Source: an uncultured Acidobacteriota bacterium (GTDB lineage: Bacteria > Acidobacteriota > Thermoanaerobaculia > UBA5066). From it: a stretch of DNA of 64,000 nt. Each line of letters opens with the position of its first letter. Position 1 is the stretch's first letter. A model generated the notes under the pieces. The model saw only the letters and a list, made by a program, of their open reading frames with translations. It did no database searches and was not told the origin of the DNA. Both the position numbers and the translations under genes were made by a program. Positions 99 to 17,699 of this stretch are shown here, one piece after another. Location: the NCBI GenBank assembly GCA_963779415.1, contig CAVZYA010000001.1:1792001-1856000 (forward strand). The letters are read 5' to 3'.

Positions 99-621
99 AG
101 TCCACCCGCTTTCCGCTGATGAAGGTCAGGCCGAAGAAGCGCCTCGTGGCGTTCACGTCGTCCGTCGGGACGGCCGTCACCGTGATGATCCAGAGGGCGT
201 TGGCCCCGCCGCTCGAGAGAGCGACGTTGTAGGAGATCTTGTAGGGGCCTGACGACTGCTCCATCACGTTGGCCCCGTCCGGGCCCCAGTAGTCCCATCC
301 CGTGTCCGACGACAGGTAGGGAAGGCTGTACGTTCCGGCCGTGAGCGTCGGGGGAACGCCGGAGTCGAAGGGAGGCGTTCCGGGAGGGTTCCGCCGCGTC
401 AGGGCGTAGCAGAAACGGATGTTCTCGACGACCTGCTGGCACTTGAAGAGAAGCTCCGTCCGCGCCGCGGCGGCCGCGCTCGAAAGGAGGGCGAGCGAGA
501 AGAGCTGCAGGATCCCCGCGACCATGATCGAGAGGATCGCGAGCGCGACGAGGACCTCGATGAGACTCGATCCCCGGCGGCGCGCCGGGTTCCTTCGCGA
601 GGGTACGGGGAGCGATCGCAT
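82..621 (-). CDS. PilV-like minor pilin
   Basis: RRRG|SSLIEVLVALAILSIMVAGILQLF prepilin motif; ATG 621 overlaps the upstream TGA. Confidence 0.8.
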   Translation of the reverse strand: MRSLPVPSRRNPARRRGSSLIEVLVALAILSIMVAGILQLFSLALLSSAAAAARTELLFKCQQVVENIRFCYALTRRNPPGTPPFDSGVPPTLTAGTYSLPYLSSDTGWDYWGPDGANVMEQSSGPYKISYNVALSSGGANALWIITVTAVPTDDVNATRRFFGLTFISGKRVDYVAAF

Positions 622-1289
622 CAGAAGTTGATCACCACCATCTGGACGGTCCATGCGGGCGAGATCCGGAGCTCGAACCCGTGTCCCGGCGTGAGGCTCC
701 CCGAAGCCATCTCGGGGAGCGTGAGCGGGAACGTGGCCGCGGCCGTGTTCTGCGGACGGGCCGTCGTCGAGAAGTCGCTCACCGCGCGGCCGAACGTGTC
801 GCAGGCGAGGAGATGATCCACCGTGACGTCCGTGGAGGCCGAGGACCAGTTCGCGGCGGCGATCTGACCCGCGACGGTCGTCGAGAGCGAGAGCGCCGTG
901 AGATCGAGCGTGTGCTCCTCGACGAGCGTGTCCTTGGTCGGGTCTACCGTCCCGTAGGGGGGCATGACGAGGGTGCCGGGGGGATTCCCGACCGGATCGC
1001 CGTTCGGATCGTCCGCCCAGAGCTGGATGACCGTGGCCCCGCCGGCCGTGGCGCTGCCGATCCGGAGGAACATCATCGCGCCCCGACGCTGGGATTCGAG
1101 GTACGCGCGCGTCGTCATGATCTGGATCGTCTGCGCCATGGAACTCAGGGCGTTTCGCCGGAGGAGCCGTCTCGCCTGGATTCCCGCGATCGTCAGGGTG
1201 ATTCCCAGGATCACGAGCACGATGAGAAGCTCGATGAGCGAGAACCCGCGCTTCGCGGAGCGACGCCTGACGGCTCGGTGGGTTCGCAT
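621..1289 (-). CDS. FimT/FimU/GspH-like minor pilin
   Basis: C-terminal part of ORF 621..3638: KRG|FSLIELLIVLVILGITLTIAG...; first gene of the FimT-PilV-PilW order. Confidence 0.8.
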   Translation of the reverse strand: MRTHRAVRRRSAKRGFSLIELLIVLVILGITLTIAGIQARRLLRRNALSSMAQTIQIMTTRAYLESQRRGAMMFLRIGSATAGGATVIQLWADDPNGDPVGNPPGTLVMPPYGTVDPTKDTLVEEHTLDLTALSLSTTVAGQIAAANWSSASTDVTVDHLLACDTFGRAVSDFSTTARPQNTAAATFPLTLPEMASGSLTPGHGFELRISPAWTVQMVVINF

Positions 1290-1496
1290 CGGATGGACCG
1301 GCGGGAGATTAGCGAGTCTCATGCCGCGATTCGTCATTCCCCGGAAGCGATTCTCCCTCAAAAGCTTGCCGGGCGGGAAGCCCGCGCGGCTGCACCCGCG
1401 AGCCGGGGCAAGGCGACACCTTTCGTAACAGCGGCGGGCGCGGCGATCGCTGCGAACTCCCGCGCCCCGTCGGCTACCATAGCCGCGGAGAGGGAC

Positions 1497-4016
1497 GTGG
1501 TCCTCGAAAAGATCCGGAAAGGCCTCCGGAGCGAGCCTCCCTGGCTCACGCAGCTGCGTGAGCATCGCTGGAGCTCCGACGCCCAGCGAAAGGAGCTTCT
1601 CGACCGCTTCTCCTCGCAGCACGATCCCGACGTCGAGTGGGTGATCTGGACCGCCCTCGATCCGAATCCCGATCTCCGCGCGGCCGGGATCGCCCTCTTG
1701 AAGAAGCGGAGAGACCGGGAGGCGTATCCCGCAATCGCCTCGCTCCTTCACACGAAGTCGGACGCGGTCCGCCGCGCCGTCCTCCGTTTCATCAGGGATC
1801 TCGCCGGGGCCGAGCTCCCGGGCGTTCTCCTCGAGCTTGCCACCACGGGAGACGACCGTACCCGCCTCGCGACGCTCGAGCTGTCGGCCGGGTCGAGCGG
1901 CGAGGTCGCCTTCGAGGTCGCGCGTCGGACGATCCAGTCTCCGTCCCCCGCCGTCCGGGCGGGCGCGCTCCGGCTCGTCAGCGAGACGAACTTCCCCGGA
2001 GGCTCCGCCTCGGCGGCCCGCCTCGCCGTCCCGCTCCTCCAGGACGAGAACAGCGAGATCCGCCTCGCCGCCCTCGCCGTCCTCGAGCGCCACCCGAGCG
2101 AATCGACCTTCCCCGACCTTCTCCAGATGGCGCGAACGGGCGACGAACGCGTCATGCACGCGGCGTTCGGCGCTCTCCTGCGCCTCATTCCGAACGCGAA
2201 GGCGGACCACACGCCCGAGATCGTGCCTCTTCTGTCGGACGGGCTCCCGGCCGTCCGGGCGGGCGCCATCACCCTCCTCCAGGGCGCCGCCCCGGCCATC
2301 GTGGGCCGCCGTTTCGTCGAGCATTTCCACGGCGCCTTCGTCTGGGTCCGGGACCGCGCCCTCGACACGACCCGGGAAGGGCTCCCGGAGTTCGCGCCGG
2401 CGCTCATCGCCCTCTGCGAGGATCCGGACGGGACTCTCGCGAAGGCCGCGAGCGAGATGTCGCTGGCGCTCGAGGACCCGCGCGCGATCCCGGTCTGGCT
2501 TCGCCTCGTGGACGATCCGGACTACTGGGTCCGCGCCCGCGCGATCGAGCTTCTCGGCCAGAACGGGCATGGCCGCCCGGAGGTGCTGCCGAAGCTCCTC
2601 GTCGCCCTCGACGTGCCGGAGATCGCGATCCCGGCGGCCGCGGCCCTCGGAGAGATGGGGGATCCGCGGGCGGCCGGGCCGCTCCTCGAGGCGTTCAAGA
2701 AAGCGCAGGCGAGGGCCGACCTTCAGGTCGAGCTGATCGAGGCGATGGGGACTCTCGCCCGGGTGGAGCCCCGGATCGTTCCCCTCCTCGGCAAGATCGC
2801 GCAGACGCCGCAGATCGACGCCAAGGTGCGCGAAAAGGCACGCCGGACGGTGGAGCTGGCCCAGTCCGCGGCCGAAGGGGCCTCGGCGTCGATCGAGGAC
2901 GACGAGGAAGGTCCGGAGCTTCCCCGGGCCGAAGGGGAGGAGGCCGGGCTGAAGCAGATGCTCTCCGATGCCGTACGGGCCGGCGCCTCCGATTTCCACC
3001 TCGCGACCGGCTTCGTCCCGCACCGCCGCGTCCAGGGGCGGCTCGAGCCGGTCGACATTCCCACGGTGACCCGGAAGAGAGCGCAGATCCTCGTCAAGGA
3101 GATGCTCTCCGACGCCGAGTGGAAGCAGCTCGAGGAGGAGCGCCACCTCGACGTCGCCCTCCGGATCCCGCGCGTCGGACGGTTCCGGGCGAACTTCTTC
3201 TCGCAGCGGAGCGGTTTCGACGCGGCGTTCCGGGTGATCTCCCGCGTCATCCCGAAGCTCGAGGACCTCGGGCTGCCGCCGTCGGTGGTGGACCTTCTCC
3301 GGATGACGCAGGGGCTCGTCCTCGTGACGGGCCCGGCCGGGTGCGGCAAGTCGACGACGCTGGCGGCCATGATCGACCGTCTCAACGAGACCCGCCCCTG
3401 CCACATCATCACGATCGAGGACCCGGTCGAATACGTCCACCTCCCGAAGCTCGCTCTCGTCAACCAGCGGCAGGTCCCCCGCGACACGGCGTCCTTCGCG
3501 CGCGCGCTCCGGGCAGCGCTCCGTGAGGATCCGGACGTCATCATGGTCGGGGAGCTGCGCGACCTCGAGACGATCTCGCTCGCCGTCACGGCCTCCGAGA
3601 CGGGACACCTCGTCTTCGGGACGCTCCACACGTCCCACTCGGCGGCCACGATCGACCGGATCATCAGCTCCTTCCCGCCGGGGCAGCAGGGCCAGATCCG
3701 CGTCATGCTCGCGGATTCGCTGAAGGCCGTGATCTCACAGGTCCTCCTCCCTCGCCGGGACGAGCGCGGTCGGGTGGCCGCCTTCGAGATCCTCCGGACG
3801 ACGCAGGCCGTCGCGGCCCTGATCCGCGACGGAAAGACGTTCCAGATCCCCTCGATCGTCCAGACCGGGAAGCTCCACGGAATGCAGACGATGGACCAGG
3901 CGCTTCTTCAGCTCTGCGAGGCCGAGCTGATCGAGCCGGAGCTCGCGCTCGAGAAGGCGCTCAAGGCCGAGCTCTTCGAGGGGCTCGTCGCCGAGCGCCG
4001 GCGGGAGCTCGAATGA
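1497..4016 (+). CDS. PilT/PilU-family ATPase with N-terminal HEAT-repeat region
   Basis: GTG 1497 after GGAG. Repeated 'D.d..vR.aA...L' HEAT units, then a PilT domain with [32 protein letters not shown] and AVAALIRDGK (AIRNLIRE-like). Confidence 0.9.
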   Translation: MVLEKIRKGLRSEPPWLTQLREHRWSSDAQRKELLDRFSSQHDPDVEWVIWTALDPNPDLRAAGIALLKKRRDREAYPAIASLLHTKSDAVRRAVLRFIRDLAGAELPGVLLELATTGDDRTRLATLELSAGSSGEVAFEVARRTIQSPSPAVRAGALRLVSETNFPGGSASAARLAVPLLQDENSEIRLAALAVLERHPSESTFPDLLQMARTGDERVMHAAFGALLRLIPNAKADHTPEIVPLLSDGLPAVRAGAITLLQGAAPAIVGRRFVEHFHGAFVWVRDRALDTTREGLPEFAPALIALCEDPDGTLAKAASEMSLALEDPRAIPVWLRLVDDPDYWVRARAIELLGQNGHGRPEVLPKLLVALDVPEIAIPAAAALGEMGDPRAAGPLLEAFKKAQARADLQVELIEAMGTLARVEPRIVPLLGKIAQTPQIDAKVREKARRTVELAQSAAEGASASIEDDEEGPELPRAEGEEAGLKQMLSDAVRAGASDFHLATGFVPHRRVQGRLEPVDIPTVTRKRAQILVKEMLSDAEWKQLEEERHLDVALRIPRVGRFRANFFSQRSGFDAAFRVISRVIPKLEDLGLPPSVVDLLRMTQGLVLVTGPAGCGKSTTLAAMIDRLNETRPCHIITIEDPVEYVHLPKLALVNQRQVPRDTASFARALRAALREDPDVIMVGELRDLETISLAVTASETGHLVFGTLHTSHSAATIDRIISSFPPGQQGQIRVMLADSLKAVISQVLLPRRDERGRVAAFEILRTTQAVAALIRDGKTFQIPSIVQTGKLHGMQTMDQALLQLCEAELIEPELALEKALKAELFEGLVAERRRELE

Positions 4017-5143
4017 GCAGTCAGCCCGGATCCGGCCTCTTCCCCGGCGGTGCCGCGCACCGGCGGATCGACACCCTCCTCCGCCTCGTCGTCAGCAAGA
4101 AGGCCTCCGACCTCCACCTCGCCGTAGGCCGCACGCCGATGATCCGGATGGACGGCGACCTCGAGAAGCTCAAGTGGCGGGTCCTGACCGAGGAGGAGTT
4201 CGACGCCTTCGTCGCCCCGATCACGCCGCCGCGGCTCTACGACCGGTGGAAGGAGACGGGCGACACGGACTTCGCCTACTCGCTCGGCAACGTCGCCCGG
4301 TTCCGCGTCAATCTCTTCCGCCAGGAGCTCGGCTCCGGCGCCGTCCTCCGGCTCGTTCCGCCACGGGTCCTCACGATCGAGGACCTCGGCCTCCCGTCGC
4401 TCGTCTCGTCCATCTCGCGGGTGACGCGCGGCCTCGTCCTCGTCACCGGCCCGACCGGGTCGGGCAAATCGACGACGCTCGCCGCGGTCGTCGACTGGAT
4501 CAACCGGAACCATGCGCGTCACATCGTGACGATCGAAGACCCCGTCGAGTTCATCCACACGCCGCACAAATCGCTGATCTCGCACCGGGAGCTCGGGTTC
4601 GACACTCCCGATTTCGCCGGCGCCCTGAAGGCCGCGCTCCGCGAGGATCCGGACGTCGTCCTCGTCGGCGAGCTTCGGGACCTCGAGACGATGAGCCTCG
4701 CCCTGCAGGCCGCGGAGACCGGCCTTCTCGTCTTCGGCACCCTTCACACGAACTCCGCGGCGAAGGCGATCGACCGCCTCATCGACAGCTTCCCGGCCGC
4801 CGAGCAGGAACAGGCGCGCACCGTCCTGGCCGAGGTGCTGCGCGCCGTCGTCGCGCAGGTCCTCCTGAAGCGCAAGAGGGGCGGCCGCGTCCCGGCCTTC
4901 GAGGTCCTCCGGTGGTCTCCCGCGCTCGCCAACAGCATCCGCGAGGGGAAGACGGCGATGATCACGACGCTCATCCAGACCGGGCGCAGCGCCGGGATGG
5001 TGTCGCTCGACCAGTCGCTCGCCGATCTCGTCGTGGAGGACGTCGTCGCCTACGACGAGGCTTTCGAGAAGGCTCTCGAGAAGGACGGTTTCAAGGCTCT
5101 CGTCGAGAAGCGCCGGGGCGGCGCCTCCCCGCCCGGACACTAG
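4013..5143 (+). CDS. pilT: Type IV pilus retraction ATPase PilT
   Basis: [44 protein letters not shown]; ATGA overlap with the previous gene. Confidence 0.93.
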
Positions 5144-6621
5144 GGAGACGGTGGGGGCGGCGTCCGGGGAACCGAGAGGACGAACCGCGCCCCACCGAGC
5201 GAGGCGGAGCGCCCCACGGAGACTTCGCCGGCGTGGAGCCCGACGATCTTCGCGACGAGCGCGAGGCCGAGGCCGGTGCCGGACTCCTTCGTCGAGAAGA
5301 ACGGCGTGAAGAGGTTCGGGAGGACCTCCGGCGGCACGCCCGGGCCGTCGTCCTCGACGGCCACCCGGAGCGTCCCTTCCGGGCCCGTCTCGCCGCGAAG
5401 CAGAACGCGGCCCGCGGCGGCCTCGCCGGCGTTGCGGAGGAGGTTGACCAGCGCGCGTCGGAAGAGGGCGGCGTCGATCGTAGCCCGCCCGAACTCCCCT
5501 TCGACCGCGATCCCGACCGGCGGCGTCACGACCGGCGGCTCCGCGGCGATCTCCGCGACGAGCGCGCCGACGTCGGTCGGCGCGGCGTCGAGCCGCTCGG
5601 GGCGCGCGAAGAAGAGGAAATCGCCCGTGACGCGCGCGACATGCTCGGCCTCGGCTCCGACCGCGGCGAGGTGCCGGGACCGGGCCGCGGGATCGTCCGT
5701 CTGGGAGGCGAGCCGGACGTAGCCGAGGATCGTCCCGGTCGCGTTGCGAAACTCGTGGGCGATCCCGGCGGACATCTCCCCGAGCCGGGCCAGCTCGCGC
5801 TGGGAGGAGAGCTCGCGCTCGAGCCGCGTCGTCGAGAGGACGAGCGACTCCGCACGGACGGCGAGCTCGTCCGCCCGCCGCTTCTCGCGCTGCCGCAGCT
5901 CCTCCAGCTCGGCACTCAGGACTTTCAGCTCTTCGATCGTCCGCTGGAACGTCGCGATCGCCCGTTCGGTCTCGTCCCCCGAGGAAGGCTCGCCCGGGAC
6001 GACGACGCCCGCGTCGCGCGCCGTCTCCGTCAGCGCGTCGATCGGACGCATGAACCTCCGGAAGAACGGAAAAACGAGGAGGACGAGGAGGAGCGAGGCG
6101 AGCGGGACGATCCACGACACGATGAGGACGTTCCGGCGCGCGGCGGCCCGGGCCGAGCCGTCGTACACGACGCGAACGATCTGGTGTCCGCCCGTGAGCG
6201 ACACGAAGACGACCACTCGCGCCGCCCCGGGACGGGACTCTTCCTCGACGAGCGCCCCGCCGTCACGCGGGCGCGCCGGAGCCGGGAGCTTCGCCGGCGA
6301 GAGTCCGGCTTCGGGGAGAAACGTCGCCTCGGCGAGGCGGCTTCCGGCGTCGTCGTAGACGGCGGCCCCGAGGGCCTCCACGTCCCGGAGGACCAAAGCC
6401 ACGGCCGCGTCGGCTCCGAGCGCGACCGTCGGGTTTCCGCCGCGCTCCAGCCGTTCGGCCACGCGTCGCGTACGGGAGACGGCCGCGGCCCGGCTCTCGC
6501 CGATTCCCCACGAAGCGACGTTGCGGAGAACGACGAGCGACAGCGCGGCGAGGAAGAGGAGGAAGAGGACGCCGCCGACCACGGCAAGGCGGACCTGCCG
6601 CTCGAACGAGCCGACCCTCAA
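5140..6621 (-). CDS. Membrane sensor histidine kinase (NtrB/PilS-like HisKA + HATPase)
   Basis: TTG 6621 overlaps the pilD stop. Two TM helices, HAMP-like segment, H-box [14 protein letters not shown]-box [25 protein letters not shown]. Confidence 0.9.
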
Positions 6622-7779
6622 GGCAGAAGCCTCGACGGGGACGGAACGGGGAGCCCCGACAGAAAGAGAAGGAAGCGCCCCGCCGCAAAGCTGACGAGAG
6701 CGCCCACCGCGAGGAATACGCCGAAGGGGATGTCGGCCCGGTCCAAAAGGACGAGGCAGGCGTCGCCCGCGCCGATCGCGCGAGCCGAGAAGACCCGGAA
6801 GAAGGCGTCGCCGTCGTCCACGACGAGCCGGCCGACGTCCAGCGGGGCCGGCGATCCGGCGCGCCGGCGCGCGAGGCGTGCCACGGCCACGACGGGCCGC
6901 GCGGTACGCGACGACCCGCGCAGCGGCTCCCCCTCCCTCGCCGCCCCCGGAATCCCGTTCCAGTCCGGACCGGAGGCTTCGATCCGGCCGTCGGCCGCGA
7001 CGAGAAGGCCCTGACGGCGCGCGGCGGCCGCGGCGGCGCCGGGATCGCGCGCCACCTCGCCGGCCACCCGGCGCCACGAAAGGCGCCGGACCACCGCCGC
7101 CGCCAGGCCGGTGACGCTCCCGCAGAGAGATCCGACGAAGATCGCGAGCAGCACTCCGGCGACGCCGGTGAAGGCCCCCACCATCGCGATCATCTTCACA
7201 TCCCCCAGACCAAGGCCCTCCGCGCCCCGGAGACGCTCGTAGGCGGCTCTCACGGCGAAGAGGAGTCCTGCGCCGAGGGCCGCTCCGAGGAGCGCATCGG
7301 CGGTCCGGCCCGAAGCGAAGGAGCCGCCGGTTCCCCGCGCGAGATCTTCCCCCGCGGCGAGAAGAAGCGCGACGACGAGGCCGCCCAGCGTCACCTCGTC
7401 CGGAAGGATCCGGTCGGAGAGGTCCGTCCCGACGAGCAGAACGGACGCCGCGGCAAGAAGGGCTCCGCGAAGCGCGTCGAAGCCCGGCCCCCAGATCAGA
7501 GCCGCACCGAGAAAAAGGAGCGCCGTGGCGGCTTCGACGAGCGGGTAGCGGGGAGAGATCGGCGAGAGGCAGCTTCGGCATCGGCCGCCGAGAAGGAGAA
7601 AGGAGACGACCGGAATGTTGTCGTAAAACGCGATTCGCCCGTTGCAGGTCGGGCAGTGCGATCGGGGGCGAGACCACCGACTCGCCGCGCGGAAGACGAT
7701 GGATGCAGACGTTCGCGAAGGACCCGACGACGGCGCCCAGCGCGGCGGAGAAGAACAGGAAGAGCGCGAGCGCGCTCAC
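6618..7779 (-). CDS. pilD: Prepilin peptidase/N-methyltransferase PilD; one frameshift at ~7665 and a large C-terminal insertion
   Basis: [16 protein letters not shown], then (after removing one base in the G5 run 7664-7668) SHCPTC...YDNIP...[21 protein letters not shown] and IPFGVFL. Confidence 0.9.
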
Positions 7780-9995
7780 GGACGCCCCGGAGCCGGAGGT
7801 CCCCCGGCAAGGACGGCGGCGACGAGGATCAGGAGCGAGATACCGGAGAGCGCGAGGCCGGGCTTGTAGAGAGGGGGCTCGTACGAGAGGGAGAGGCGAT
7901 GTTCCCCCCCCGGAACGAGAGCCCCGAGAAAGGCGATGTCGACGCGGAGAGGCGTGACCGGAAGGTCGTCGATCCGGATTCGCCATCCCGGGTCGAAGCT
8001 CCGGGTCAGGACGACGAGACCCCCTTCCGAGGCCGAGATCGCGATCTCCCCCCGCTCCGGGTCGTCGCGGAGGACGCGGGCGAGGGCGAAGCCGCGGAGC
8101 GTCCGCCGCGGCGGGAGAGGAACGGGAGAAGAATCCAGATAGGCGATCTCCTCGGGCTCGAAGCCCTTCTGGCGGAGCGCCTCGAAGGCCACGTCGTCGC
8201 CCGCCACGATCGCCTCGCGGGGAAAGAAGATCCGGCCCATCCCCGAGGGGAGACGGTAACGAAAGACGCCGCCGGAGGCCGCCACGAGCCAGGCCCCGGG
8301 GATGGTCGTCGGGAGGGGCGTGACGAGCTCGCGAACGTCCGCAAGGGCGAGGAGGGTCCGCGGGTTTCCGCCCGCGAGGGCGGCGCCGAGAAGTCGCGCG
8401 CGCCTCGGGTCGTCGAGCGGTGACGCCGTCCCCGCCGTCGCGATTCCGAGCGGGAGGTTTCCGTACCCCGCGAGCGCGTCGTGAAGCCTCCGCACCGTCT
8501 CCTCCGAGAAGCGGCGCCCCCCCTTCGCGAGCCACTGGGAGAGGAGCGGTCCGTCGTGGACGGCCACGAAGAGACGCCCCGGCGCGGTCCCGGTGCGCCC
8601 GGCGAGGACGGGCGGAACCCGGACGAGATCCGCCGCCGGGACCGATGCGAGCGCGTCGGAAGAGAACCAGAGGAGCGGCCCCGCGAGGACGGCGAGGAAG
8701 GCCGCCTCGGCGGAGGGCCTCCGTGTGAGAAGGCCGATGCCGGCCGCAGCCGAGAGGAGCGCGGCGGCCGCCCGGAGCGCGCCGTCGCCCCGAAGCCTCG
8801 AGGGCTCGAGAAGGGCGACGACCGAGAACGCCCCGAGAACGACGGCCGCCCCGACGGCGAGGGTGCGACGCCGCGCCGGCAGGCTCGCCCGGAGAGCGTC
8901 GACGCCCGCGCCCGCCAGCGACGCGAGGACGAGATGCGTCATGACGAACCATCGGGCGGGGAATCGGGTTCCCCGAAGCGGGCCCTCGCCGACGAGAAGC
9001 GGCGCGAGCCCGCCTCGCGCGCCGAGGGCGAGAAGGAGCCCGACGGCCGCGATGCCGAGCAGAACGAGGCCTTCGCGGTCCCCCTTCAGGCCGGGAGCGC
9101 CGGCCACCGCGAGGAGGAGCGCAAGCGGCCCGAGGGCCAGCGTCACGAGATACGAGCCGCGCCCGGCCCCTCCCGCTCGGGTCATCCCCTCAGGCGGGGG
9201 GACGACGAGATCCGAAAGGTCGGAGAGGCCCACCGGCCGGCGAAGCGCCTCTTTCTCCGTCAGCCCGGTCAGGCGCCCCGACTGGCGAAGCTGGACGGCG
9301 AAGGGGAGAGCCACGGCGGAGGTGAGCCCGGCCGCGAGGAGAGCGCCCGCGACGAGGCGAGCCGCCGCGCGGAGGGAAGGCCTCGCTCCGGACGGCCCGC
9401 CCGAGGCCAGGGCCGCGGCCGCCGCCGCGATCGCTCCTCCGGCGGCGAGCGCCGGCTCTCCGGCGAGGAACGCGAGCGCGGACGCTCCGGCGAAGGTCGC
9501 GATCCCCTCCCCTCGTGCCGCCCGGAGAGCGCCGAGGAAGATCCACGGGAGAAAGGACGCCGTCGCGAAGTTGGCGTAGACGGGAACGAGCGACAGGAAC
9601 GCCCCGCCGGCGACGAAGACGGCGGCGCCCGAGAGCGCGGCGAGGCGCGAGCGGCCTTGCGCGGTGAGCCACGCCGCCATTCCCGTCGCCGCGACGAGGA
9701 GGTGGAGCGCGATGGCGACGTGCGGGCCGAGGGGCCATGGGAGGAGGAACGGGGCATCCCCCGGATAGAGGACGCCGGTCTGAAGGCGCGCGAGCCACGG
9801 CTCGCCGCAGCCCGACAGCGGGTTCCAGAGCGGCGGCGCGCCCGCGCGCCACCGCTCGGCCGTGTACGCCTTCATCGGCCAGAAGAAATCGGCGAGGTCC
9901 CCCCGCGCGGGGACGCGGGAGGTCAGAAGCATCGGGAGGAGCGCCGCCGCCGAAAGGGAGAGCCCGAGGAGCGCCGCCGCCGCGCGAACTTTCAT
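7776..9995 (-). CDS. YfhO-family polytopic membrane protein (putative GT-C glycosyltransferase)
   Basis: GDLADFFWP...[18 protein letters not shown] and C-terminal FDPGW...[14 protein letters not shown] are typical YfhO signatures. Confidence 0.8.
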
Positions 9996-12963: not shown

Positions 12964-15900
12964 TCAGCCGGAAGCCGGAATTTCCCGTCCCCTCCAGAGA
13001 AAATAGACCGCCGGGTAGACGAGAAGCTCGAGCGCGAACGAGGTCACGAGGCCGCCGACCATCGGGGCGGCGATCCGCTTCATCAGGTCGGCGCCGGCAC
13101 CCGTGGACCACATGATCGGAAGAAGCCCCACGAACGCCGCGCAGACGGTCATCGCCTTCGGCCGGACGCGCTTTACGGCGCCGTGGATGATGGCCTCAAT
13201 CAGGTCGGCGCGGTTTCTCAGCAGCCCCTTCGCCTTCGCTTCGTCGTGGGCGAGATCGAGAAACAGCAGCATGAAGATGCCGGTCTCGGCGTCGAGTCCC
13301 ATCAGGGCGATCATCCCGACCCAGACGGCGATCGAAATGTTGTATCCGAGGAGCCAGAGGAACCAGACGGCTCCGATGATCGAGAACGGAACGGCGAGAA
13401 GGACGATCATCGTCTTCATCGCAGACTTCGTATTGGCGTACATCAGGAGAAAGATCAGGACGAGGGTTATCGGGATGACGACCTTGAGCCGCTCCTTGAC
13501 GCGGAGCATGTTCTCGTACTGACCGCTCCAGACGAGCGTGTATCCGGGGGTAATCTTCACCCGCTCGGCAACCGCCTTCTTCGCTTTTTCGACGTACCCC
13601 CCGATGTCCTCCCTGGCCGTGTCGAAGTCGACGTAGACGTATCCCGAGAGGAGGCCGTTTTCGTTCCGGATCATCGCCGGTCCCTGGATCTTCCGGATCG
13701 CGGCGAGCTGTCCGAGCGGCACCTGCGCTCCGCCCATCGTCCGGACGAGGACGCGCTCCAGACGATCGAGTGTCCTCGCGCAGCTCACGGGGGTAGCGGA
13801 CGTTGACGGAGTACCGCTCGCTCCCCTTGATCATGGTGGTCACCGTCTCGCCCCCGATCGCCGACATGATGACGGCGTTCACGTCGTCCACGGTCAGGCC
13901 ATACCGGGCCAGCTCGTCGCGGTTCAGGTCGAAATCGATGAAGTAGCCCCCCGCGGCGCGCTCGGCGAATGCGGAACGGGTCGCGGGAAGGGTCCGGACG
14001 GCCGCCTCCACGTCGGTCCCGATCCGCTCGATCTCGGAGAGGTCCGCGCCGAAGATCTTCACACCCACCGGCGTCCGGATTCCGGTGGAGAGCATGTCGA
14101 TCCGGTTCTTGATCGGCATCGTCCACGCGTTCGTCGTTCCCGGGATCTTCAGGGCCGCATCCATCTCGTCGACCAGCTCCTCGTAGGAGATCCGGTCGCG
14201 CCAGACGTGCCGGAAGATCGACGCGAGCCACCTGGGCGCCCAGGGCGAGTACCAGCGGTCTCTCCTTCGCCACCCGGACTCGGGCTTCAGGATGACGGTC
14301 GTCTCCATCATCGAGAACGGCGCCGGGTCCGTGGACGTATCGGCTCTCCCCGCCTTGCCGAAGACTCGCTCCACCTCGGGGAACGTCCGGAGGATCTTGT
14401 CCTGCACCTGCAGGAGACGCTCGGCTTCCGTCACCGAGATGCCCGGGAGCGTCGTCGGCATGTAGAGGATGCTCCCCTCGTAGAGAGGCGGCATGAACTC
14501 CGAGCCGAGCTTCAGGAAGACCGGCACCGTCGAGGCCATGGCCAGGAGGGCGACGGCGATCGTCGCCTTCGGGTGGCGAAGGACCGCGCGGCACGGGCGT
14601 TCGTAAAGGCGATGGAGAACCACGCTGATCGGGTGCTTCTCCTCGGCGTAGTACTTCCCGACGGCGATCTGGTTCGCGATCCAGGCTAGCCACTTCGGCC
14701 GGAAGGTGAAATCGTCCATCCGGACGAAGAGCATCCGCACGGCGGGGTTGAGCGTGATGGCGAGGAGGGCCGCGATGGCCATGGCGAGGTTCTTCGACCA
14801 GGCGAGCGGCCTGAAAAGGCGTCCTTCCTGGTCGACGAGCGTGAAGATCGGCAGAAACGCCACGGCGATGACGAGAAGGGAGAAGAAGACCGACGGGCCG
14901 ACCTCCATCAGGGCATCGAGGCGCACCCTGTGGAAGTCGCCGGGACGCCCCGAGTCGTTCCAGAGCTGGAGTTTCTTGTAGGCGTTCTCGACCTCGACGA
15001 TGGCCCCGTCCACGAGGACCCCGATCGAGATGGCGATCCCTCCCAGCGACATGAGGTTGATGTTCAGCCCGAGGAGCTGGAACGGAATGAACGCGAGGAT
15101 GATCGAGACGGGGATCGTCAGGATCGGCACGATCGCGCTCGGGACGTGCCAGAGGAAAAGCAGGATGACGAGGGAGACGGCGATGATCTCCTCCGTCAGC
15201 TTGTCCTTCAGCGTCGTCACGGCTCGCTCGATGAGGTCGGACCGGTCGTAGGTCGTGACGATCCGGACCCCCTTCGGAAGCGACGGCTCGATCTCCTTCA
15301 GCTTCGCCTTGACCCGGTCGATGACGTTCAGGGCGTTCTCCCCGCTCCGCATCACGACGATTCCGCCGACGACGTCCCCCTTCCCGTCGAGGTCGGAGAT
15401 GCCGCGCCGGATCTCGGGGCCCAGCGAGACCTTCCCGATGTCGCCGACCGTCAGAGGCGTTCCCTTCTCGTTCGTCTTGACGACGATCCTCTCGATGTCC
15501 CGGACGTTCTTCAGGTAGCCCCGGCCGCGGACCATGTACTCCCGGCCGGAGAACTCGATGAGCCGCCCCCCGACCTCGTTGTTGCTCTTCCGGATGGCGT
15601 CCACGACCCCGTCGAGCGAAAGGCCGAAGGCGGCCAGCGTGTTCGGGTCCACCGTCACCTGGTACTGCTTCTGGAAGCCCCCGATCGAGGCCACCTCGGC
15701 CACGCCAGGAACCGACTCGAGGGCGTACCTGAGGAACCAGTCCTGGTACGAGCGGATGTCGTCGTTGGCGTTCCGGCCGCTCTCGTCGACGAGGGCGTAC
15801 TGGAAGACCCAGCCGACGCTCGTCGCGTCGGGCCCCAGCTCGGTCTTCACGCCGGCCGGGAGACGCGACTGGATCTTCGACAGGTACTCGAGGACGCGCG

Positions 15901-16246
15901 AACGCGCCCAGTAGATGTCGGTGCCGTCCTCGAAGATGACGTAGACGTACGAGAAGCCGAAGTCGGAGAAGCCACGGATCGTCTTGACCTTCGGCGCGCC
16001 GAGGAGGGCCGTCACGATCGGATATGTGACCTGGTCCTCGAGGATGTCGGGGCTCCGGTCCCAACGGGAATAGATGATGACCTGCGTGTCCGAGAGATCG
16101 GGGATGGCGTCGAGCGGGATCTGCCGGATCACGCCGACCGAAAGGACGATGGCGATGGCATAGAGGACGAGGACGAGGAACTTGTTCTCGGCCGAGAAGC
16201 GGATGACCCTCTTGATCCATCCGCCGCCCTGATTCGGCTCGCTCAC
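12964..16246 (-). CDS. cusA: CusA/CzcA heavy-metal RND permease (frameshift at ~13772)
   Basis: LDAIPDLSDTQVII, LGPDATSVGWVFQY, GSEFMPPLYEG, DPAPFSMMET; C-terminus RVRPKAMT...MKRIAAPMVGG lies in the adjacent frame. Confidence 0.93.
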
Positions 16247-16256
16247 GCCGGCCCCC

Positions 16257-17699
16257 TCACTGCGCCGGGCCGCCCGGGGGCGGCGCTGCGGTCGTCGGCG
16301 CTCCGGAAGTCATGGCGGAGAGGGCGGCCTTGAGGCGCGACTCCGAATCGACGAGGAAGTTCGCCCCCCGGGCCACCACATCGCCCTTCTGAAGGCCGCT
16401 CCTGACCTCGTAGACCCCATTGCCGTGATCGCCGACGGTGATGTCCCGCGGCTGGAAGCGCCCGTCCCCGAGCGCGACGAAAGCGACCTTGCGCGTCCCG
16501 CTGTCGAGCACCGCATCGTCCGGAACGCCCAGCACCTCTCGCGTATTCCCGCGGATCGTGACGTCGGCGAACATCTCGGGCTTCAGCTCGCCCTTCGGGT
16601 TGTCCAGCTCGATCCGGACCTTCACCGTCCGTGTCTTTTCGTCGACGGCGGGATAGATGTACGTCACCGTGCCGTGCCAGCTCCTCGCCGGCCAGTAGGA
16701 GAGCGTCATCGTGGCCGCCTGGCCCACGGAGAGGCGCGGCAGCTCGTATTCGTAGACGTCCGCGAGGATCCAGACGTGCGAGAGGTCGACGATGTCGAAG
16801 AGGGTGTCGGCCGGCGTCACTTTCATGCCGTGGTAGGCCGTCCGCGCCCAGATGTAGCCGCTGATCGGAGCGTAGAGGTCGAGCGTCTTCAAGGGCTCGC
16901 CTTTCTCCTCGATCCGGGCGATCTCCCTGGGGCTGATCTCCCAGAGAAGAAGGCGCTGGCGGGCGGCATCCAGGAGGTCCTGCCCCCCCTGCGAGACGCT
17001 CGGAACCGTGGACCCGGCGAGGGAGCGCGAGGCCTTAAGCGCGAGGAGGTACTCCTGCTGCGTGGCGTAGAGGTCGGGGCTGTAGACCGCGGCCAGGGGC
17101 TCCCCTTTCCGGACGTACATCCCCGTGAAGTCGCCGTAGACGTGCTCGACGTAGGCCTCGAACCGCGTGTGGACGTGATGGACCCGCCGATCGTCGGCGG
17201 TGACCCGTCCCACCGTGTGAATCGAGGTGGCGAAAGGGAGACGCGAGACCCGGACGGTCTTCAGCCCGATGAGCTGCTGTCGTTCCGGGTCGATCCGGAC
17301 GGTCGCGAAGCCCTCCGGGACGGCGCTGGCACCCTCGACGTCCTCCGCGTAGACGGGAACGAAGTCCATCCCCATCGAGTCCTTCTTCGGGACAGGCGAC
17401 GTCTCCCGCGGATTCATCGGAGACCGGTAGAAGAGGATCTTTCGCTCCCCGGCGGAGGCCGGCGTTCCGGCCGCAGGGGCGGCGGCCGTCCGGGTCTCGA
17501 CGGGGACGAGCTTCATTCCACAGATCGGACAGTCGCCCGGATGGTCCCGCACGATCTGGGGGTGCATCGGGCACTGGTACTTCTTCGCGGCCTCGGCCAC
17601 CGGCACCGGCTTCCGGCATCCCGCCAGAGCCAGCACACCGGAGACCGCAGCCAGGAACGTTCCGAGCAGCACGAGGAGAACCAGGGAGTTCTTCTTCAT
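16257..17699 (-). CDS. cusB: CusB-type RND periplasmic adaptor with heavy-metal-binding domains
   Basis: YQCPMHPQI...CPICGMKL, YRSPMNP...KDSMGMDFVPVY, LKPEMFA, FLVDSESRL. Confidence 0.9.
   Translation of the reverse strand: MKKNSLVLLVLLGTFLAAVSGVLALAGCRKPVPVAEAAKKYQCPMHPQIVRDHPGDCPICGMKLVPVETRTAAAPAAGTPASAGERKILFYRSPMNPRETSPVPKKDSMGMDFVPVYAEDVEGASAVPEGFATVRIDPERQQLIGLKTVRVSRLPFATSIHTVGRVTADDRRVHHVHTRFEAYVEHVYGDFTGMYVRKGEPLAAVYSPDLYATQQEYLLALKASRSLAGSTVPSVSQGGQDLLDAARQRLLLWEISPREIARIEEKGEPLKTLDLYAPISGYIWARTAYHGMKVTPADTLFDIVDLSHVWILADVYEYELPRLSVGQAATMTLSYWPARSWHGTVTYIYPAVDEKTRTVKVRIELDNPKGELKPEMFADVTIRGNTREVLGVPDDAVLDSGTRKVAFVALGDGRFQPRDITVGDHGNGVYEVRSGLQKGDVVARGANFLVDSESRLKAALSAMTSGAPTTAAPPPGGPAQ

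Follow-up and report, generated by a model that had tools for sequence, protein, structure and literature searches.

Prepilin peptidases are usually seen as housekeeping enzymes that serve type IV pili and type II secretion constitutively, and the regulation of both systems is known at the level of transcription, of the ATPases and of the receptors for cyclic di-GMP (c-di-GMP). The GxGD class of intramembrane proteases includes presenilin. Outside this class, SpoIVFB is an intramembrane metalloprotease with a cytosolic CBS regulatory domain, which is terminal and not inserted. An extra soluble domain on a GxGD protease has been described for FlaK, where it protrudes into the cytoplasm and consists of four antiparallel strands (PMC4471445, PMC4985597). 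Here, a pilD-type gene for a prepilin peptidase/N-methyltransferase is analysed that lies on the reverse strand (6618..7777) of a window of 64,000 nucleotides from an uncultured Acidobacteriota bacterium (assembly GCA_963779415.1, contig CAVZYA010000001.1, positions 1,792,001 to 1,856,000). Its product carries a 119-residue insert in a cytoplasmic loop next to the active site, and this insert is strongly predicted to fold as a PAS-like domain. All positions below are those of the window.

The insert occupies positions 6732-7088 of the reverse strand and consists of 119 stop-free residues, from RRLSWRR to LLDRAD, between the penultimate transmembrane (TM) helix and the helix with the PFG motif. 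It shares its frame with the Peptidase_A24 core upstream and with the IPFGVFLA helix downstream, its G+C content (GC) by codon position (0.84/0.64/0.90) is the coding pattern of this high-GC genome, and an independent public contig covers positions 6797-7017 within it. In eight pilD genes of two sister families (f2 and f3), by contrast, the proteins have 254-265 aa and a linker of ~10 residues from the penultimate helix to the PFG motif. The same short form is seen in 15 further families of the class, where the matches extend to residue ~261 of a 264-aa short PilD. Because of the shared frame, the coding GC pattern and the ~10-residue loop of the relatives, the insert is, as judged from the sequences, a true insertion of ~110 residues relative to them and no chance open frame. 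A first-pass annotation of this DNA, made from the letters alone, had placed an in-frame insertion of ~120 aa at 6732..7088 and had taken about 10 residues as the normal length of this loop in PilD; the former is exact in coordinates and sequence, and the latter holds in the eight sister-family genes and the 15 further families.

The insertion is a property of one family. The protein itself was found in 39 of the 41 related genomes searched, and in the family of the window (f1, 10 genera) the matches traverse the insert in 23/24 genomes, whereas those in f2 and f3 end at about residue 190. All 20 aligned f1 loci have the insert, and a profile built from it matches in 33 of 37 f1 genomes with one copy per genome, as against none of 363 genomes drawn from 22 other families in this class. 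(Genome tallies include the unpublished G025, G030 and G155, of which no sequence was used; leaving them out alters no conclusion.) Among 1.84 billion representative proteins the profile found 13 at E<=1e-3; nine of the 11 strong ones were examined, and all nine are PilDs with the same insert, while the two weak matches, both beta-propeller repeat proteins, have a hairpin motif in common with it. The 35 loci in named genome records all come from metagenome-assembled genomes (MAGs) labelled Thermoanaerobaculia, Acidobacteriota/Acidobacteria or Holophagales. The alignment of orthologs proposed in the first-pass annotation thus finds the insert conserved: rather than being absent from close relatives, it is family-wide, and it is in part covered by a public contig. 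All this strongly indicates a single fixation of the insertion, in the ancestor of one Acidobacteriota family labelled Thermoanaerobaculia.

Conservation within the insert is that of a selected domain. Over 52 insert-bearing sequences its length is 107-130 residues, its net charge +4 to +13 and its median Arg content 19.5. Six residues are invariant in 52/52 sequences, namely P277, G278, R301, R306, F327 and R347 in the numbering of the 386-aa protein P0017, and conservation is almost as strict at R231, W235, G257, G283, A293, A298, R317, R328, V329 and D349. Apart from R231 and W235, the first ~25 residues, rich in Ala and Arg, are weakly conserved. The ratio of nonsynonymous to synonymous substitution rates (dN/dS) was 0.28-0.52 in the insert and 0.14-0.29 in the core (8 pairs), which strongly indicates that the insert is kept under purifying selection.

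The enzyme around the insert is by every sequence criterion a PilD, save for the broken frame of this record. Within 6621-7661, Pfam finds PF06750 (A24_N_bact; 73.8 bits against a cut-off of 23, E 1.2e-20) and PF01478 (Peptidase_A24; 55.8 bits against 26.5, E 6.9e-15). On the reverse strand lie the Zn-binding Cys pairs (7569-7655), the first catalytic Asp (7422-7424), the GLGD motif (7200-7211) and the IPFG motif (6720..6731), which opens the last TM helix immediately after the last strand of the PAS-like domain. In an alignment of 28 sequences (A1; numbering of P0003, the 347-aa product of 6621..7661), both catalytic Asp are invariant (28/28; D80 in TDL.. and D154 in G151-L-G-D154), and so are C3, C6, C28 and C31 of the zinc/methyltransferase region, whose activity is predicted only, together with G151 and G153 and with P312, F313 and G314 of the PFG motif, which do not vary whether the insert is present or absent (28/28). 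The gene is the only pilD of the genome, which is in 3 contigs. A second family-specific insertion of ~17 residues lies at about 7278-7331 of the reverse strand, in the loop between two earlier TM helices; it is modelled as a loop with lower confidence and is by topology probably periplasmic.

The frame of pilD is interrupted by one extra base at 7662 (no strand assigned), a defect that the first-pass annotation had overlooked. The intact form would have 386 aa. The first 38 codons (7663-7776, with GTG at 7777-7775) are in another frame than the remainder (6621..7661, reverse strand), which holds the Zn-binding Cys pairs, the catalytic Asp, the GLGD motif, the insert, the PFG helix and the C-terminus. 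The N-terminal segment (7663..7777, reverse strand) comprises the GTG start, TM1 and the start of A24_N_bact, and the A24_N_bact profile is split accordingly, with positions 2-26 in one frame (E 5.7e-7) and 28-82 in the other. When the extra base is removed, the protein reads ..SPPSHCPTC.. as in the relatives. The contigs of all three public runs that cover the site have one letter fewer at 7662; these contigs belong to relatives that share at most 0.15 of sampled words, and they leave large parts of the window uncovered, which carries no information either way. P0017, with 99% identity over the insert, has an unbroken frame across the site, pilD is in frame in 19/19 relatives examined, and apart from the shift the PilD of the window differs from P0017 in few residues. 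A second apparent frameshift lies 6 kb from pilD, where the gene for an AcrB/AcrD/AcrF-type transporter (12967-16309, reverse strand) is split, with ACR_tran positions 2-628 and 770-1019 in different frames; such a second split gene suggests indel errors in the assembly. Since the public contigs, P0017 and the relatives lack the base and the AcrB-like gene is split as well, the most likely source of the extra base is an assembly error (indel) or a private mutation, and it is no property of the family: the defect is limited to this record.

That the insert is neutral ballast, or that the copy in the window is a decaying pseudogene, would fit the interrupted frame and the higher dN/dS of the insert relative to the core, but it is barely credible. 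The length of the insert is steady and its invariant residues hold across 10 genera, dN/dS stays well below 1, and neither the three public contigs nor P0017 nor any of the relatives has the extra base. Nor does the small number of differences from P0017 look like decay; the gene is the sole pilD of the genome beside intact pilin and ATPase genes, and the split AcrB-like gene points to indels of the assembly.

The predicted structure of the insert is that of a compact PAS-like alpha/beta domain. AlphaFold2 (AF2) was run on the insert of the window alone (37 sequences) and on the full-length protein (60 sequences, with P0017 as first row). The former model has a mean predicted local distance difference test score (pLDDT) of 92.8, with all five models at pLDDT 88-93, and shows the order beta2-alpha-beta3 with the elements H18-26, E27-30, E35-39, H41-44, H61-75, E83-91, E97-107 and E110-117. 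The latter has pLDDT 90.7 and a predicted template modelling score of 0.86. The first 14 residues of the insert (7047..7088, reverse strand) form a cytoplasmic continuation of the TM7 helix with a near-invariant R and W; they appear as helix 2-14 in the insert model, and in the full-length model the TM7 helix continues to residue 244. The PAS-like core (6732..7037, reverse strand), delimited by the models, the fold searches and the invariant residues, would comprise an N-cap helix, A-beta, B-beta, a short C-alpha, a PG loop, F-alpha (RLARRR), G-beta, H-beta (FFRV) and I-beta (LVLL.R.D). The elements are the same alone and within the full protein, from the helix that continues TM7 through the N-cap helix, two strands, short helix, PG loop and 15-residue RLARRR helix to the three long strands, the last of which stops three residues before the PFG motif of TM8. 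In the models, the order of elements along the chain, as distinct from their arrangement in the sheet, is that of a PAS domain: two N-terminal strands, a helical connector and three C-terminal strands. The modelled order of the TM helices puts the insert on the side of both catalytic Asp and hence in the cytoplasm, and its net positive charge points to the same side.

Fold searches agree with this picture. When the insert model was compared with 48,161 chains by VIA-align, the best 50 rows were all PAS or Cache sensor domains (Z 6.1-8.7), led by 3fc7_B (Z 8.7, root-mean-square deviation (rmsd) 2.6 A, 87/98 residues) and with the ThkA PAS domain 3a0v (Z 7.9, rmsd 2.5, 84/96) also among the best. 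The top Foldseek match was a PAS domain of Leptospira (8px4, E 3.6e-3, probability 0.99), followed by EcDOS, PYP, PpsR, BvgS and other PAS domains; the best PAS probabilities were 0.9-0.99, nearly all rows among the matches listed are PAS domains, and the fold matches span 80-100 of the ~105 core residues. With the full-length model, the first of the best 50 VIA-align rows was FlaK (3s0x, Z 12.5, 162 residues of the membrane core) and the other 49 were PAS or Cache domains at residues 225-350, and Foldseek gave the same picture. Since the matches are uniform in kind, extend over most of the domain and come from two aligners that concur, these models are clearly best read as a PAS-like fold. 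The PAS resemblance that the first-pass annotation had seen in the letters is thereby borne out as a prediction, and the AlphaFold and Foldseek check that it had proposed yields a confident PAS-like model rather than disorder.

Profile methods see the resemblance faintly. No Pfam model matches inside the insert of the window protein at E<=1. Against four PAS alignments, hhalign gave the insert probabilities of 15-67%, all of them weak profile matches. With PAS domains of the same genome the probability was 15% (12 sequences) and 28% (25 sequences, P 6e-4) over 29-30 columns, which are those of the GLLV.ADGR...IPG motif; none of 150 column shuffles reached the score, and a reversed template scored 14.2 against 24.3. 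The motifs picked out in the first-pass annotation (GLLV.ADGRI, IPG, G.PL) are the very columns that hhalign aligns to A-beta, B-beta and C-alpha of PAS, so that in sequence terms they are real, as the beaten shuffles and reversed template show, and weak evidence on their own, given the low probability. The PAS domain of the histidine kinase encoded beside pilD in related genomes aligns better than generic PAS, at 45% over 74 collinear columns (7 sequences), 67% with P 5e-5 (11 sequences) and 44% over 77 columns (33 sequences), and here all column shuffles were beaten. Global hhalign of the insert to PAS gave nothing. In searches with the insert, the best E was 0.95 among PDB sequences and the next-best match in its own genome had E 0.12. 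The whole-protein profile found zinc-finger noise only and no A24 structure among PDB sequences, and the ESM Atlas, searched with the stored homologue P0026, returned PilD clusters only (score 0.80) and no structure. A predicted homodimer of the PAS-like core scored 0.00 against a mark of 0.42, which weighs neither way.

These faint profile matches raise the question of whether the model is over-confident, the domain having another fold or partial disorder and resembling PAS through a common beta-hairpin and helix. In favour of this are the lack of any matching sequence family, the Z scores of 6-9, which the tool calls middling, alignments of 37-60 fairly close relatives, and the fact that the other matches of the insert profile are beta-propeller repeats with the same hairpin motif. 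All five models nevertheless reach pLDDT 88-93, the insert folds alike alone and in the full protein, all 50 VIA-align rows are PAS or Cache domains and nearly all listed Foldseek rows PAS, with 80-100 of ~105 core residues covered, and hhalign puts the PAS strands in the same order as the model. An artefact of this kind is accordingly very unlikely, and the PAS-like fold is taken as the basis of what follows.

Other identities for the insert were considered and rejected. The RLARRR motif could have belonged to a PilZ-like c-di-GMP site, and hhalign gave 1.3% against 21 PilZ domains of this and related genomes; no Pfam PilZ match was found at E<=10, and no DxSxxG follows the Arg cluster. Internal duplication was dismissed after a comparison of the two halves by hhalign, whose score of 12.9 is within the range of shuffles (maximum 14.7). 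Unusual pilin leaders were also rejected as a reason for the insert; the two pilin-like genes nearby have ordinary leaders.

A mechanism can be proposed in which the PAS-like domain acts as a regulatory input or as a coupling element, so that pilin cleavage and/or N-methylation would take place only under certain conditions. In the predicted topology, TM7 would follow the GxGD helix and the insert would be joined both to TM7 and to the PFG helix, which we take to be the counterpart of the PAL helix of presenilin. A direct relay to the active site is possible because the helix after the GxGD helix lies at one end of the insert and the PFG helix at the other; a change in the domain could reach the active site directly, or else the route taken by the prepilin leader peptide. 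A small, probably anionic ligand at the Arg-rich face or a protein partner might act as the trigger; several invariant Arg are placed on F-alpha, G-beta, H-beta and I-beta, and conserved Arg on F-alpha and the three C-terminal strands suggest an anionic ligand, an acidic lipid or an acidic partner. The probability of such a regulatory role is put at roughly 0.5, and it is in this sense that we infer a sensing role for the domain.

A number of results weigh against it. On the side of structure, Foldseek of the insert model gave no match at E<=1e-3, the Z scores of 6-9 are graded middling, the helical region between B-beta and F-alpha is short, and because it is short the ligand pocket in the model may be small or absent; the contacts between domain and active site are read from adjacency in the sequence alone. 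On the side of sequence, 20 of 20 members lack a Pfam PAS match even at E<=10, a PAS_9 scan finds 15 domains in the genome without the insert among them, and the hhalign probabilities are all <70%, falling to 3.6% against the kinase PAS of f1 alone. The alignments of the 52 inserts contain no conserved Cys or His for heme, a flavin adduct or a chromophore. To this are added the higher dN/dS of the insert, the frameshift of pilD in this assembly, and the observation that sister families process the same kind of pilins without an insert while the leader peptides here are ordinary.

The same fold could also exist without sensing, as a passive structural or docking module that braces TM7 and TM8, contacts the pilus platform or ATPase, or anchors its Arg-rich face at the membrane. 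PAS-like folds without a ligand are common, the helical lid is short, no residue of the cofactor type is conserved, the strongly positive net charge would suit an interaction with acidic lipids, and unrelated insertions occur in the cytoplasmic loops of other PilD lineages. FlaK, too, has a small cytoplasmic beta domain, with no known sensing role (PMC4471445, PMC4985597). On the other hand, the several invariant Arg of F-alpha, G-beta, H-beta and I-beta would be expected in a binding site sooner than in a brace, and both helices beside the active site are attached to the domain. A passive role is possible, though somewhat doubtful, and a regulatory role is preferred.

The neighbouring histidine kinase bears on the origin of the domain. 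The kinase gene lies directly downstream of pilD in the same operon (5140..6600, reverse strand), and its product has the Pfam domains HisKA and HATPase_c only. Where pilD has the short loop, the kinase gene downstream encodes a PAS domain just before HisKA, at seven of eight f2 loci and at four of eight loci sampled in families f5, f12, f15 and f16. The kinase of the window corresponds to its orthologue minus exactly that PAS segment of ~103 aa, as a clean gap in the alignment. It would be tempting to conclude that the kinase PAS had moved into PilD. However, 12/12 f1 loci of the genera g2, g4, g5 and g7 combine a kinase PAS with an insert in PilD, a gap of ~300 nt in the kinase match is seen in g6, g8, g9 and g10 as well, and the kinase PAS is missing only in g1 and g3, while it is present in the eight other f1 genera, in f2 and in four outgroup families. 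The loss of the kinase PAS was thus later and confined to g1 and g3, and relocation into PilD is therefore rejected. An origin of the insert in an old duplication of the PAS of the neighbouring kinase is possible.

A more specific proposal would join this history to the regulatory role: PilD would be a signal-gated intramembrane protease whose PAS-like domain binds a metabolite, a redox cue or a partner and switches cleavage or N-methylation, the domain may stem from a duplication of the kinase PAS, and the later loss of the kinase PAS in the genus of the window would have left the one in PilD as the only PAS-like module of the operon. Taken as a whole, this chain of assumptions is unlikely.

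The locus is that of a pilus/type II secretion system (T2SS)-like cluster with intact pilin-like genes and T2SSE ATPases. It runs from the pilin-like genes through a YfhO-like gene and pilD to the histidine kinase gene, which is followed by convergent genes for a PilT-like ATPase and a HEAT-repeat ATPase, and this order is kept in families f1 and f2. The two pilin-like genes nearby have leaders of 9-10 residues. Directly upstream of pilD, in conserved synteny, lies the gene for the YfhO-like membrane protein (7776..9995, reverse strand; Pfam YfhO), whose stop overlaps the GTG start of pilD (GTGA, 7775-7778), which suggests translational coupling. At 564-4013 of the forward strand, a long open reading frame fuses HEAT repeats to a T2SSE-type (PilB/PilT-like) ATPase domain, and the same architecture occurs at the same place in one sister-family genome. 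The pairing of pilD with a kinase is common and not universal; no kinase follows within ~3 kb of pilD at L108 (genome G028, f3) or at L117, L118 and L120, which represent three outgroup families. One related MAG (G004) has three YfhO-like/pilD/kinase loci (L057, L059 and L060) on different contigs, with 55-57% identity to the PilD of the window, and could be a mixed bin or a case of true paralogy. The pilD match is split over frames in L059 and L063, like the copy in the window.

If true, the presence of a PAS-like module in PilD would add a possible control point at pilin maturation. It would also be a natural example of a sensor-type soluble fold grafted into a GxGD intramembrane protease, and if the enzyme were signal-gated it would be the first protease of this class with its own sensor. 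Because the domain is invisible to Pfam, it is absent from the catalogues of domain architectures. Judged by titles only, no publication was found that connects prepilin peptidases or GxGD proteases with a PAS domain. In practice, work on this enzyme is limited by a lineage that is known only from metagenome-assembled genomes.

A comparison with known systems shows which parts are shared and which are new. The best structural match of the membrane core is FlaK/ArlK (3S0X; Z 12.5, 162 residues, model residues 100-376), to which the PDB sequence search with the whole-protein profile gave no sequence relation. The cytoplasmic domain of FlaK has four antiparallel strands, whereas the one here is predicted to be a PAS-like alpha/beta domain. 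SpoIVFB is similar in having a soluble domain of a small-molecule-binding type on a membrane-embedded protease, and differs in being a metalloprotease, in its domain and in the terminal position of that domain. The PAS domains of kinases (ThkA 3A0V, HTR-like 3FC7 and CitA PASc 5FQ1) share the predicted fold and the order of elements (Z 7.2-8.7, rmsd 2.5-2.6, 81-87 residues) and show a weak collinear profile similarity, which is best for the PAS of the kinase encoded beside pilD. Unlike them, the domain in PilD falls below the Pfam PAS thresholds, has a shortened helical lid and is located inside a polytopic membrane protease instead of before a kinase or output domain.

Extra sequence in the cytoplasmic loops is also found in the PilDs P0035, P0036, P0039, P0041 and P0034, which have 467-505 aa and only the two PilD Pfam domains; none of the five is matched by the insert profile. 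In the first four, the extra sequence comes before the GxGD motif, where a beta-rich module occurs once or twice in three lineages and an acidic low-complexity stretch in one. P0034 has its insertion in the same loop as the window protein, but this is of low complexity with extra hydrophobic segments. Compared with canonical PilD/XcpA (MEROPS A24A; PF06750 + PF01478), the protein described here has both domains, both Asp, the four Zn-binding Cys, the PFG helix and the setting in a pilus/T2SS-like cluster, and it differs in the 119-residue PAS-like domain in place of a ~10-residue loop, in the extra loop of ~17 residues and in the frame broken at 7662. What distinguishes the family is thus a real, family-wide and selected PAS-like domain inside PilD, with a putative sensing role: a known enzyme in a new form.

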